From: Escherichia coli
Lineage (GTDB): Bacteria; Pseudomonadota; Gammaproteobacteria; Enterobacterales; Enterobacteriaceae
Assembly: GCF_013315695.1 (NCBI RefSeq)
Contig: NZ_CP054353.1
Direction: 5' to 3' (one strand)
Length of the DNA: 64,000 nucleotides
Position numbers: made by a program. Of the stretch, positions 36,001-60,000 are shown in pieces (positions within the stretch are counted from its first letter, which is position 1; each line of letters opens with the position of its first letter).

Positions 36001-39000
36001 GGGATTACTGTAATCGTAACGTCCAGCCTGATTCATCACAGCCAGATACACGCCTGCCTGCTGAAGCGGTTTGATATCGCCCAGCGGCAGCAATAATTTT
36101 TCACGGGTGTTACGCGCAGGATTGAGATCAAACCGTCCAGTGTAGACCAGATCCGCCATCTGCAGCAGTTTGTCTGACTGCCAGTTCGCCAGCGAATTGC
36201 GGTATTCCCATTGGCTAATGAAAGCGGGCAGTGATTCTGGTTTCACACGGAAGAAGTTAACATCGACATTGTTAACGTTGAGCGCCATTACCGGCAGCCC
36301 TTCAATAACTTTACCAGGTAACAACGAACCACGGCTGGCAAAACCGACGCTGGGTTGGATATCACGGGTAGTTATAGTTTTTTCGTAATCTTTACTGAAG
36401 GTTGCGTTGTTGAGTGCTTTGACCTCCTTGCCAATAGTGACGATCAAATCACGTTTCGGTTCGAGGTGGCGTAAACGCAACTCTTTAAGATTATCTGACA
36501 GCTCCCAGGCACCATCCACTTTGCCGCTTTTCTTATCGACGACATGGATAACGCGTGAGAAATCCTGATCCGGATCGAGAGGAATGGAGAACGTCAGCAC
36601 CAGCGTGGCTGCGCCATCAAGTTGAACTTCAGAGAGATCCAGCAATGTCAGCGCCTTACCGGCACTCTGTTGGGCCAGTTTTTGTCGCTCCGGCGCGGAA
36701 AGTTTTGCTGAACTCACGTTTTCTGAAGAGGCCGCTTTAGTAACTTCAGAAGGCGCATCTTTTTTCACCGCTGTTGGCGCGTTATCGTTGTTGTCGCACC
36801 CTGCCAGCGCCAGCATTAGCATGCAGGCGGCTACGCGTAACTTTTTCATTTTTCATCCCTGCCACAATGGCCCGTTAGCAACGTCGAATAATTATTATGC
36901 GTGAGAATTTACGTTATGTAATTCAGTATCACGCCCATACAATCCGAATTTTAGTGAGAATTGTGGCTCAGACAGCCAAATCAGCCTCTTTTGCTTGTCG
37001 CTTTTCACTAAACATCCGACAATTTAGCCTAACCCCGGCAAAAATGGAGATGCCTATGTCCACGACATGGTTTGTAGGAGCCGACTGGCTCGCCGAACAT
37101 ATTGATGACCCGGAAATTCAGATTATCGATGCCCGCATGGCGTCGCCTGGACAGGAAGATCGTAACGTTGCTCAGGAGTATCTGAATGGACATATTCCCG
37201 GCGCAGTGTTTTTTGATATCGAAGCGCTTTCTGATCACACTTCCCCGCTTCCGCACATGCTGCCGCGCCCGGAAACGTTCGCCGTGGCGATGCGTGAATT
37301 AGGCGTTAACCAGGATAAGCACCTGATTATCTATGACGAAGGTAATCTTTTCTCAGCCCCACGAGCATGGTGGATGCTGCGCACCTTTGGTGTAGAGAAA
37401 GTGTCGATTCTGGGGGGTGGACTTGCAGGCTGGCAGCGCGATGATCTGCTGTTAGAAGAAGGTGCAGTAGAGCTGCCGGAAGGAGAGTTTAACGCCACGT
37501 TTAATCCTGAAGCCGTGGTGAAAGTCACCGATGTGTTATTGGCAAGCCATGAAAATACGGCGCAAATTATTGATGCCCGCCCGGCTGCACGTTTTAACGC
37601 AGAAGTTGATGAACCTCGCCCAGGTTTACGTCGCGGACATATTCCCGGTGCATTGAACGTTCCGTGGACGGAACTGGTGCGCGAAGGCGAACTAAAAACG
37701 ACCGATGAACTGGATGCGATATTTTTTGGTCGCGGCGTCAGCTATGACAAACCGATTATCGTCAGCTGCGGCTCTGGTGTAACGGCAGCCGTGGTTTTGT
37801 TGGCACTCGCGACACTTGATGTGCCAAACGTGAAACTGTACGACGGCGCATGGAGTGAATGGGGCGCACGAGCAGATTTACCGGTTGAGCCCGTAAAATA
37901 AGCTTTTTACAGGCAATAAAAAACCGCCGAATTTGGCGGTTTTTTATTGCTGGTCTGGTTCGCGGCCTTTCCAGCAGGTTGTATTACTGCAAGTGTATCT
38001 CGTCTACTCAATACTCGCTTTATGCATCAACGATGTCGGTGATGCTGCCAACTTACTGATTTAGTGTATGATGGTGTTTTTGAGGTGCTCCAGTGGCTTC
38101 TGTTTCTATCAGCTGTCCCTCCTGTTCAGCTACTGACGGGGTGGTGCGTAACGGCAAAAGCACCGCCGGACATCAGCGCTATCTCTGCTCTCACTGCCGT
38201 AAAACATGGCAACTGCAGTTCACTTACACCGCTTCTCAACCCGGTACGCACCAGAAAATCATTGATATGGCCATGAATGGCGTTGGATGCCGGGCAACAG
38301 CCCGCATTATGGGCGTTGGCCTCAACACGATTTTACGTCACTTAAAAAACTCAGGCCGCAGTCGGTAACCTCGCGCATACAGCCGGGCAGTGACGTCATC
38401 GTCTGCGCGGAAATGGACGAACAGTGGGGCTATGTCGGGGCTAAATCGCGCCAGCGCTGGCTGTTTTACGCGTATGACAGGCTCCGGAAGACGGTTGTTG
38501 CGCACGTATTCGGTGAACGCACTATGGCGACGCTGGGGCGTCTTATGAGCCTGCTGTCACCCTTTGACGTGGTGATATGGATGACGGATGGCTGGCCGCT
38601 GTATGAATCCCGCCTGAAGGGAAAGCTGCACGTAATCAGCAAGCGATATACGCAGCGAATTGAGCGGCATAACCTGAATCTGAGGCAGCACCTGGCACGG
38701 CTGGGACGGAAGTCGCTGTCGTTCTCAAAATCGGTGGAGCTGCATGACAAAGTCATCGGGCATTATCTGAACATAAAACACTATCAATAAGTTGGAGTCA
38801 TTACCAACGATGTCAAGTAGATAAAAAAGGATAGATTTTGAATTCATTTGGCTTATCAGTCCGAATTCAGACAAATATAAACAAATCCCGCTTAATATTA
38901 AAATATACTAACTGGTAAAAGATATTACTTAAACGTGTAATTTCACTTTCTTTAAACAACAAAAAACCGCCAAAATCAGGCGGTTATTTGTTGCTGGTTT

Positions 39001-57000: not shown

Positions 57001-60000
57001 GAAGCACGATGAAAGAAAAAACGATCATTATTGTCGGTGGCGGGCAAGCGGCGGCAATGGCTGCGGCCTCGCTACGCCAGCAAGGGTTCACCGGTGAGCT
57101 GCATCTGTTTTCCGATGAGCAACATCTTCCTTATGAACGCCCCCCGCTCTCGAAATCCATGTTGCTGGAAGATTCCCCACAGTTGCAGTCTGTGTTACCC
57201 GCTCACTGGTGGCAGGAAAACAATGTTCATCTGCATTCCGGTGTAACCATCAAAACATTGGGCCGCGACACACGAGAGTTAGTGTTAGCTAACGGCGAAA
57301 GCTGGCACTGGGATCAGCTTTTTATAGCAACCGGCGCGGCAGCCCGACCGCTGCCGTTGCTTGATGCACTGGGAGAACGCTGCTTTACTCTGCGCCATGC
57401 CGGCGATGCCGCCAGACTGCGAGAAGTTCTGCAGCCCGAACGGTCAGTCGTGATTGTCGGTGCCGGAACTATTGGTCTGGAACTGGCTGCCAGCGCCACG
57501 CAGCGCGGATGTAAGGTGACAGTGATTGAACTGGCGGCAACCGTCATGGGCCGTAATGCACCACCGCCCGTGCAACGCTATCTTTTGCAGCGCCATCAGC
57601 AGGCTGGTGTGCACATTCTGCTCAATAATGCCATTGAACATGTGGTCGATGGTGAAAACGTAGAACTGACGCTGCAAAGTGGCGAAACGCTTCAGGCCGA
57701 TGTGGTGATTTACGGTATTGGTATCAGCGCCAACGACCAACTGGCTCGCGAGGCCAACCTTGATACTGCCAATGGCATTGTCATTGATGAGGCTTGCCGC
57801 ACCTGCGATCCCGCGATCTTTGCCGGTGGCGATGTGGCAATCACCCGTCTTGATAATGGTGCACTACACCGCTGCGAAAGCTGGGAAAACGCCAATAACC
57901 AGGCGCAAATTGCCGCTTCCGCAATGTTGGGGCTACCGCTTCCGCGGCTGCCGCCGCCGTGGTTCTGGAGCGATCAGTACAGTGATAACTTACAGTTTAT
58001 TGGCGATATGCATGGCGATGACTGGCTTTGTCGTGGCAACCCGGAAACTCAGAAGGCGATTTGGTTTAATCTGCAAAACGGCGTGCTTATCGGTGCAGTC
58101 ACGCTGAATCAGGGACGTGAGATTCGCCCAATCCGCAAATGGATCCAGAGCGGCAAAACGTTTGATGCGAAACTGCTGACAGATGAGGACATCGCGCTTA
58201 AATCACTGTAACCAGGATAATTAGCGAATATCTCAACTCCTGGGGCGTGGCGAGGTGCCAGAGTGTGTATTACGTTTAAATCACATTATCTTGCAGGTAA
58301 TGACTCCAACTTATTGATAGTGTTTTATGTTCAGATAATGCCCGATGACTTTGTCATGCAGCTCCACCGATTTTGAGAACGACAGCGACTTCCGTCCCAG
58401 CCGTGCCAGGTGCTGCCTCAGATTCAGGTTATGCCGCTCAATTCGCTGCGTATATCGCTTGCTGATTACGTGCAGCTTTCCCTTCAGGCGGGATTCATAC
58501 AGCGGCCAGCCATCCGTCATCCATATCACCACGTCAAAGGGTGACAGCAGGCTCATAAGACGCCCCAGCGTCGCCATAGTGCGTTCACCGAATACGTGCG
58601 CAACAACCGTCTTCCGGAGCCTGTCATACGCGTAAAACAGCCAGCGCTGGCGCGATTTAGCCCCGACATAGCCCCACTGTTCGTCCATTTCCGCGCAGAC
58701 GATGACGTCACTGCCCGGCTGTATGCGCGAGGTTACCGACTGCGGCCTGAGTTTTTTAAGTGACGTAAAATCGTGTTGAGGCCAACGCCCATAATGCGGG
58801 CTGTTGCCCGGCATCCAACGCCATTCATGGCCATATCAATGATTTTCTGGTGCGTACCGGGTTGAGAAGCGGTGTAAGTGAACTGCAGTTGCCATGTTTT
58901 ACGGCAGTGAGAGCAGAGATAGCGCTGATGTCCGGCGGTGCTTTTGCCGTTACGCACCACCCCGTCAGTAGCTGAACAGGAGGGACAGCTGATAGAAACA
59001 GAAGCCACTGGAGCACCTCAAAAACACCATCATACACTAAATCAGTAAGTTGGCAGCATCACCTATCTTGCAAAGGGATTGGTTATGAACACACTACGTT
59101 ATTTTGATTTTGGAGCTGCCCGCCCCGTTTTGTTATTAATTGCCCGTATCGCCGTGGTCTTAATTTTCATTATTTTTGGTTTTCCCAAAATGATGGGCTT
59201 TGACGGTACGGTCCAATATATGGCCTCGCTGGGCGCGCCGATGCCGATGCTGGCAGCTATTATTGCGGTAGTTATGGAAGTGCCCGCCGCGATATTAATC
59301 GTGCTTGGCTTTTTCACCCGTCCGCTGGCGGTGCTGTTTATTTTCTACACGCTGGGTACAGCGGTAATTGGTCACCATTACTGGGATATGACCGGCGATG
59401 CGGTTGGGCCAAATATGATTAATTTCTGGAAGAATGTCAGTATCGCTAGCGCATTCCTGCTGTTGGCAATTACCGGGCCGGGGGCGATTTCTCTCGATCG
59501 CCGTTAGGAAAGATGCCGGATGTGGCGTGAACGCCTTATCCGGCATTTTATAAATTACAGCAACGCAACCCGCAACGACATCTCTGAAGTTGTTGATTCC
59601 CCTGGTGCAAGCGCAATGAGGTCACCACCTTCCGGACGATGATGGTCATCCGGCGCATGGCTCATCGGTTCCAGACAGAAGAAATCAAACGCATATCCTT
59701 TATCAAACGCCGGGTCGGAAACAAAGATGAAATAACACGGTGCAGGTGGCGTCGTTTCCATGATGATGGCATAACCCTCCTGCGGCTGCTCGATGCGGGC
59801 CTTACCATTCCATCCGGCAAAACCATTGTTTACCCACTGGCGCGGCAACGGCGTGAGCTGGTTAAAATCCAGTTCCTGCGGTAGCTGCTCGCAAAACTCA
59901 CCCGCCAGCCACTGCTCCCGCTCCAGCCAGTAACCGCTCGCCTGTGCCTGAATCCGCGTTTGCGGCGACAACGGAAAATAAGGATGCCAGCCGGTACCAA

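Follow-up and report, generated by a model that had tools for sequence, protein, structure and literature searches.

Two IS1 copies bracketing the isc-hca region of an Escherichia coli chromosome are most likely separate simple insertions

Introduction

A 64,000-nucleotide stretch of Escherichia coli DNA (contig NZ_CP054353.1 of assembly GCF_013315695.1; the whole of this stretch is called the window here) carries two copies of the insertion sequence IS1 that lie in opposite orientations on either side of some 19.5 kb, a segment that includes the isc and hca genes. This arrangement raises the question of how the pair came about, whether as the two ends of one transposing unit, by rearrangement, through an error of assembly or by two unrelated events, and whether the DNA between the copies can invert. 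We find that the pair is best explained as two separate simple insertions of an IS1A-type element into AT-rich intergenic DNA, in a commensal E. coli lineage that is rich in IS1, a reading to which we give a probability of about 0.92. The kind of element is already known, the difference is a routine one between strains, and we found nothing that contradicts the two-insertion explanation.

Structure of the two IS1 copies

Copy 1, an intact element of the IS1A type, was placed at 38038-38805 on the (+) strand by an inverted-repeat finder, by alignment to K-12 and by a profile match; copy 2, in the opposite orientation, was placed at 58296-59063 (-) by the repeat finder and by string comparison. 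The repeat finder returned this pair as the sole long inverted repeat of the window, with arms of 768 nt that are 100% complementary and are separated by 19,490 nt, and scripted string comparison showed the copies to be 100% identical, which confirms at the nucleotide level the identity that a first-pass annotation of this DNA had claimed. A perfect repeat of 768 nt cannot have arisen by chance. A script scan of the window revealed no IS1 ends beyond those belonging to the two copies.

Inspection of the elements indicates that each is complete. The terminal inverted repeats, GGTGATGCTGCCAACTTACTGAT and GGTAATGACTCCAACTTATTGAT, agree at 18 of 23 positions and are present in both copies (38038-38060 and 38783-38805 in copy 1). 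In each copy insA comprises 91 codons (38093-38368, +, in copy 1) and is followed through an A6C slippery site, TTAAAAAAC, at IS1 position 305 (38342 in copy 1), where a -1 shift yields an open InsAB' frame of 232 amino acids (38093-38790 in copy 1). The NCBIfam profile for IS1 family transposases, NF033558, scored 145.6 bits on the InsB part against a cut-off of 100, with profile positions 1-81 covered by InsA and positions 75-199 by InsB; for DNA identical to copy 1, the annotation of E. coli MSB1_4I gives an IS1A family transposase with a programmed frameshift. Both copies thus display the features by which the IS1 family is recognized: a length of about 768 bp, imperfect terminal repeats of about 23 bp, insA together with insB', near-identity to the reference element, and a target duplication of 8-9 bp in AT-rich DNA. 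The closest comparison is with IS1A of K-12 (insA1/insB1, b0022/b0021), which has the same 768-bp length, terminal repeats, insA, A6C site and insB', and which likewise makes 9-bp target duplications in AT-rich DNA. With this element the window copies have 767 of 768 bases in common, differing from it only in one base, at IS1 position 444 (G in the window copies, T in K-12), and in their chromosomal sites.

Target duplications and the order of insertion

Each copy is flanked by a perfect 9-bp direct duplication of its own, found both by direct reading and by script. Copy 1 lies between two copies of AACGATGTC (38029-38037 and 38806-38814) and copy 2 between two copies of TATCTTGCA (58287-58295 and 59064-59072); flank identity ends at 9 bp in both cases, and the chance of a nine-out-of-nine match between unrelated flanks is about 4e-6 per site. 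The two targets have an AT content of 65-67%, compared with 47% for the window as a whole. The first-pass annotation had described separate, intact duplications, and the recount agrees with it.

Empty versions of both sites exist in other strains. In strain MS 21-1, whose flanks are 100% identical to those of the window, the first site is unoccupied and contains a single AACGATGTC; in MSB1_4I (NZ_LR898874.1, from a human rectal swab, Australia) the second site is unoccupied and contains a single TATCTTGCA, 12 nt ahead of the yphA ATG. The annotation of K-12 MG1655 lists no mobile element at either site, in keeping with the first-pass statement that neither is occupied in K-12.

MSB1_4I is a near-clone of the window strain. 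Over window positions 17000-58295 the two form one alignment of 41,296 bp whose only mismatch, at 32405, falls within yfhM (alpha-2-macroglobulin), and the 1.6 kb compared beyond copy 2 contain none. Both MSB1_4I and the genome OZ547117 have IS1 at the first site of the window, such that at least three strains of one human-gut E. coli clone carry this insertion; at the exact second site, by comparison, no IS1 was found in any of the 5,426 complete E. coli genomes that were searched here. Because MSB1_4I has copy 1 but nothing at the second site, and the first site is unoccupied in MS 21-1, it is clear that copy 1 entered a recent ancestor of a small clone and that copy 2 arrived later, after the split from MSB1_4I. 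The same two strains bear out the first-pass view of the copies as independent simple insertions. The absence of copy 2 from a relative with one base difference in 41 kb suggests, from sequence comparison, that IS1 is now active in this lineage.

These observations fit an ordinary course of IS1 transposition. The InsAB' transposase would be produced by the -1 frameshift and then bind the terminal repeats; a staggered cut by the transposase, followed by repair, would duplicate 9 bp of the target. By this route copy 1 would have entered the spacer between sseA and timP, in the recent ancestor common to MSB1_4I and OZ547117, and copy 2 would later have entered the spacer between hcaD and yphA, either by a local hop from copy 1 or from any other identical copy. 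The opposite orientation of the two would be a coin-flip outcome, and the pair would neither have come as a unit nor have recombined.

Proximity of the two copies

Two IS1 elements within 21 kb of one another might seem to call for a special explanation. The MSB1_4I chromosome, however, contains at least 40 IS1 matches, and 40 copies in 5.28 Mb would by chance alone give about 0.5 per 64-kb window and about 6 neighboring pairs no more than 21 kb apart. At the copy number of the closest relative such spacing is to be expected, and the closeness of the present pair is not remarkable. In mutation-accumulation lines of E. coli, moreover, IS1A is among the most active elements, prefers non-coding, AT-rich DNA, and lands near existing copies more often than expected (23 insertions observed within 10 kb against 5.1 expected, and 37 against 25.1 within 50 kb; PMC5009759). 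Copy 2 may thus be a local hop from copy 1.

The two regions were also considered as insertion hot spots, and this idea was rejected. IS1 lies in the sseA-sseB spacer of 8 genomes and in the hcaD-yphB interval of 13, where about 25 would be expected per 2-kb stretch, a rough figure that assumes about 11 chromosomal IS1 per genome and ignores shared ancestry; there is no enrichment. Two of the 8 sseA-sseB genomes match the site of the window lineage at 100%, and 4 of the other 6, on inspection, have IS1 at two further sites. Four genomes inspected for the hcaD-yphB interval have it at three positions, none of them that of the window, and in a fifth (Z503) the arrangement is more complex.

In strain CE12-1 (L004), the hcaD-yphA spacer contains a diverged IS1, with 25 mismatches to the window copy, 10 bp from the site of copy 2; it has the same orientation as copy 2, its duplication, AGGGATTGG, overlies the yphA ribosome-binding site, and it represents an independent event in the same short spacer. 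Three genomes (L009, L010 and L011) have a common IS1 site about 250 nt past the sseA stop codon, with the duplication CGAATTCAG, and the annotation assigns their elements to different variants of IS1 (IS1A, IS1B and another); this mixture could reflect a favored target or sequence conversion between IS1 copies. The sseA-sseB spacer of many unrelated E. coli also contains a tnpA gene of the IS200/IS605 family, which seems far commoner there than IS1.

The bracketed segment and its possible inversion

The segment between the copies (38806-58295, 19,490 bp) lies in its ancestral orientation, as judged from colinearity with MSB1_4I and from K-12 gene order; from sseA to yphC, genes and strands in K-12 MG1655 are arranged as in the window. 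According to the annotation of the sequence-identical MSB1_4I stretch, from which gene content was read, the segment contains the second timR-like copy, ryfA/timP, sseB, pepB, iscX-fdx-hscA-hscB-iscA-iscU-iscS-iscR, trmJ, suhB, yfhR, csiE, hcaT, hcaR and hcaEFCBD. The first-pass annotation had termed the isc operon essential, which is too strong: E. coli requires a functional ISC or SUF system, and either one suffices (PMC8593673). An iscRS stability element (Rfam RF01517, 131 bits) is found between iscR and iscS at 46676-46785 (-) and fits an intact isc operon.

Because the copies are inverted, the only outcome open to RecA-dependent recombination between them is a flip of the interior, never its deletion. 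It is therefore possible to view the interior as an invertible segment that flips between the IS1 copies in a mixed population, with the assembly representing the ancestral isomer or one produced by an even number of flips. The idea is mechanistically sound and reasonable: RecA-dependent recombination has ample substrate in 768 bp of perfect inverted homology, and evolving E. coli populations are known to undergo inversions mediated by IS elements, the long-term evolution experiment accounting for 19 inversions among 110 rearrangements as cited in PMC5009759. The inversions seen in that experiment and in mutation-accumulation lines used the same kind of substrate, inverted copies of one IS, and short reads are blind to them (PMC5009759). 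In contrast to those experimental cases, the window shows the potential alone and no inversion. Its flanks are not exchanged, since a swapped form would read AACGATGTC-IS1-TGCAAGATA, and the unswapped duplications, together with colinearity to MSB1_4I, indicate that there has been no net inversion; the earlier statement that the copies are not the product of recombination with each other holds on the same grounds. We also searched for the recombinant sseA-IS1-hcaD' junction, using as query 800 bp of sseA flank, IS1 and the reverse complement of 800 bp of hcaD flank. The junction was found in 0 of the 5,426 genomes, none of which covered more than 66% of the query (threshold, at least 80%), a result that weighs little because none of those genomes carries both copies. 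The K-12 map, in addition, places the isc operon on the left replichore, from which we infer that a flip would turn it head-on to replication, an orientation that should be mildly unfavorable. On balance we consider it very unlikely that the segment exists as a flipping, mixed population.

Alternative origins of the pair

Still less probable is the notion that copy 2 is an artefact, an IS1 consensus misplaced at a contig join. No complete genome that was searched has copy 2 at its site, the near-clone included, and assemblers are well known to go wrong at identical IS copies. Copy 2, however, has a perfect 9-bp repeat on either side, the relative contains the repeated sequence only once, and the flanks are otherwise unchanged; a wrong join is unlikely, since misassembly would not create so clean a duplication.

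The thought that both IS1 copies and the interior were inserted together as a composite transposon, in the manner of Tn9 or Tn1681, retains hardly any credibility. Formally, two intact inverted IS1 copies do bracket a DNA segment; IS1 can mobilize IS1-flanked units, and Tn1681 has inverted IS1 copies as the window does, while those of Tn9 are direct. In contrast to both transposons, the window pair has no common outer target duplication: the outer flanks are unlike, with AACGATGTC to the left of the pair and TATCTTGCA to its right, and each element has a duplication of its own. The cargo, moreover, would be 19.5 kb of ancestral core chromosome that stands in the same place and order in K-12, where both sites are free of IS1, and its ends were acquired at different times, with relatives holding one IS1 copy or none. 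IS1-flanked units are also reported to transpose less often as their length grows, an effect by which a 21-kb unit would seldom move. We consequently reject a composite transposon as the origin of the pair, there being no common outer duplication and the same cargo being found at the same site in K-12 and in the relatives; the first-pass annotation had taken the same position, and the differing outer flanks and the K-12 order of the interior uphold it.

Just as close to nil is the chance of a duplicative inversion, in which copy 2 would derive from copy 1 by intramolecular replicative transposition that flipped the interior: IS1 is capable of replicative transposition, and the copies are identical, inverted and just 19.5 kb apart, but such an event predicts a flipped interior and a duplication split between the elements in inverted orientation, whereas both copies have direct 9-bp repeats and alignment with MSB1_4I is colinear throughout the interior, which keeps the K-12 gene order, a pattern on which we reject it.

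The timPR locus beside copy 1

Having accounted for the pair as two separate insertions, we turn to what each may do to its surroundings. The sseA-sseB spacer, in which copy 1 resides, is the timPR type I toxin-antitoxin locus. The ryfA RNA, which is the timP mRNA, maps to 39140-39444 (+; Rfam RF00126, 313 bits), and the timP coding sequence to 39286-39411 (+), as annotated in the identical MSB1_4I DNA. Two timR-like antitoxin small RNA (sRNA) genes lie upstream on the opposite strand and appear as a 63-nt repeat that is 84% identical (repeat family D4). The sseA-proximal gene, at 37918-38004 (-), was recognized by its complementarity to the window timP mRNA and by its promoter motif; its terminator hairpin has a folding energy of -28.8 kcal/mol (z = -5.1). 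The second lies at 38962-39061 (-) and has an intact promoter motif at 39068-39096.

In the timPR systems of Salmonella and E. coli, the 5' end of TimR pairs with the timP 5' untranslated region (PMC7667032). The window has the same architecture, with timP inside ryfA and, upstream on the other strand, an sRNA complementary at its 5' end to the mRNA. The proximal timR-like gene is the one that matches: its 5' end is perfectly complementary to ryfA over 17 nt (positions 66-82 of ryfA), as compared with only 8 nt of exact complementarity for the second copy. Exact complementarity was used in place of whole-molecule duplex energies against ryfA, which were uninformative (-66.4 kcal/mol for timR1 and -64.2 for timR2, where shuffled sequences averaged -56 and -62). 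Between K-12 and the window lineage, timR and ryfA differ in the stretches through which they pair, yet within each strain these stretches match for the sseA-proximal copy, a pattern that on sequence resembles co-variation within a type I toxin-antitoxin pair.

Where the window lineage departs from the known systems is in the presence of IS1 within the putative -35 box of the matching timR, and in the retention of a second timR-like copy that is intact but matches poorly. We assigned the timR promoters from a conserved motif, TTGACA-17-GAGTAT, and from the annotated 5' end of K-12 timR, which lies 6 nt past the second hexamer, at the predicted +1. The motif stands ahead of each timR-like copy in K-12 and in MS 21-1; in the window it is kept by the distal copy only. 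At the proximal copy, whose candidate -10 box GAGTAT lies at 38011-38016, IS1 copy 1 cuts the presumed -35 box TTGACA after 38037, so that it now reads CCGACA. As IS1 lies inside the presumed -35 box of the gene with 17 nt of complementarity, copy 1 has probably left the matching timR antitoxin gene with a weaker promoter. Published deletions of timR in Salmonella and in avian pathogenic E. coli had little or no effect on growth, which would explain why the insertion is tolerated.

A further RNA family has a match on the other side of copy 1. The match, to the IS128 RNA (Rfam RF00125, 166 bits, 38825-39003, +), begins 11 nt past the right-hand repeat that flanks copy 1. The corresponding K-12 stretch comes after a truncated ryfA copy (promoter and 5' end), which the window lineage lacks.

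The surroundings of copy 2 and another feature of the window

The gene next to copy 2 is yphA (59085-59507, +; a DoxX family inner membrane protein), identified from the annotation of MSB1_4I and by direct reading. Copy 2 ends 21 nt ahead of the yphA ATG, with its insA-side end (IRL) pointing toward the gene, and the ribosome-binding site AAGGGA is kept beside it. From this layout, copy 2 probably uncouples yphA from upstream transcription.

Elsewhere in the window, between xseA and der, a gene of 8,076 bp for a giant adhesion-domain protein (8557-16632, -) adjoins sinI and sinH. It contains nine repeats of about 850 nt each, which are 60-78% identical over a 73-nt core.

Discussion

The question posed by the IS1 pair is resolved largely by its flanks and by its relatives: separate duplications, an empty first site in MS 21-1 and an empty second site in a near-clone that already has copy 1 together argue for two ordinary insertions made one after the other. 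Some points do weigh on the other side. Copy 1 and copy 2 do not differ in sequence and their IS1 variant is widespread, so that any identical element could have been the donor of copy 2; this copy is known from one assembly alone, even if an assembly error would not yield its clean 9-bp duplication. The effects on timR and yphA are deduced from sequence only, and for timR a consensus promoter scanner made no promoter call, the -10 box GAGTAT agreeing with consensus at 3 of 6 positions.

A bolder interpretation would see in copy 1 a natural knock-down of the TimR promoter, or in the isc-hca segment a low rate of flipping that leaves the population mixed; we regard this as unlikely. Were the knock-down true, translation of TimP would be partly derepressed, or would be covered by the mismatched second timR copy.

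For comparative work on these strains, the two insertions serve as typing markers and matter little beyond that. Copy 1 marks the small clone formed by the window strain, MSB1_4I and OZ547117, and copy 2 distinguishes the window isolate from its closest sequenced relative. The inverted pair is also a warning to those who assemble and compare genomes, as a 19.5-kb inversion could occur here and short reads would miss it. Finally, if the promoter assignment holds, the clone provides a natural test of a timPR system in which the matching antitoxin is weakened, and the published deletions suggest that the effect would be small.

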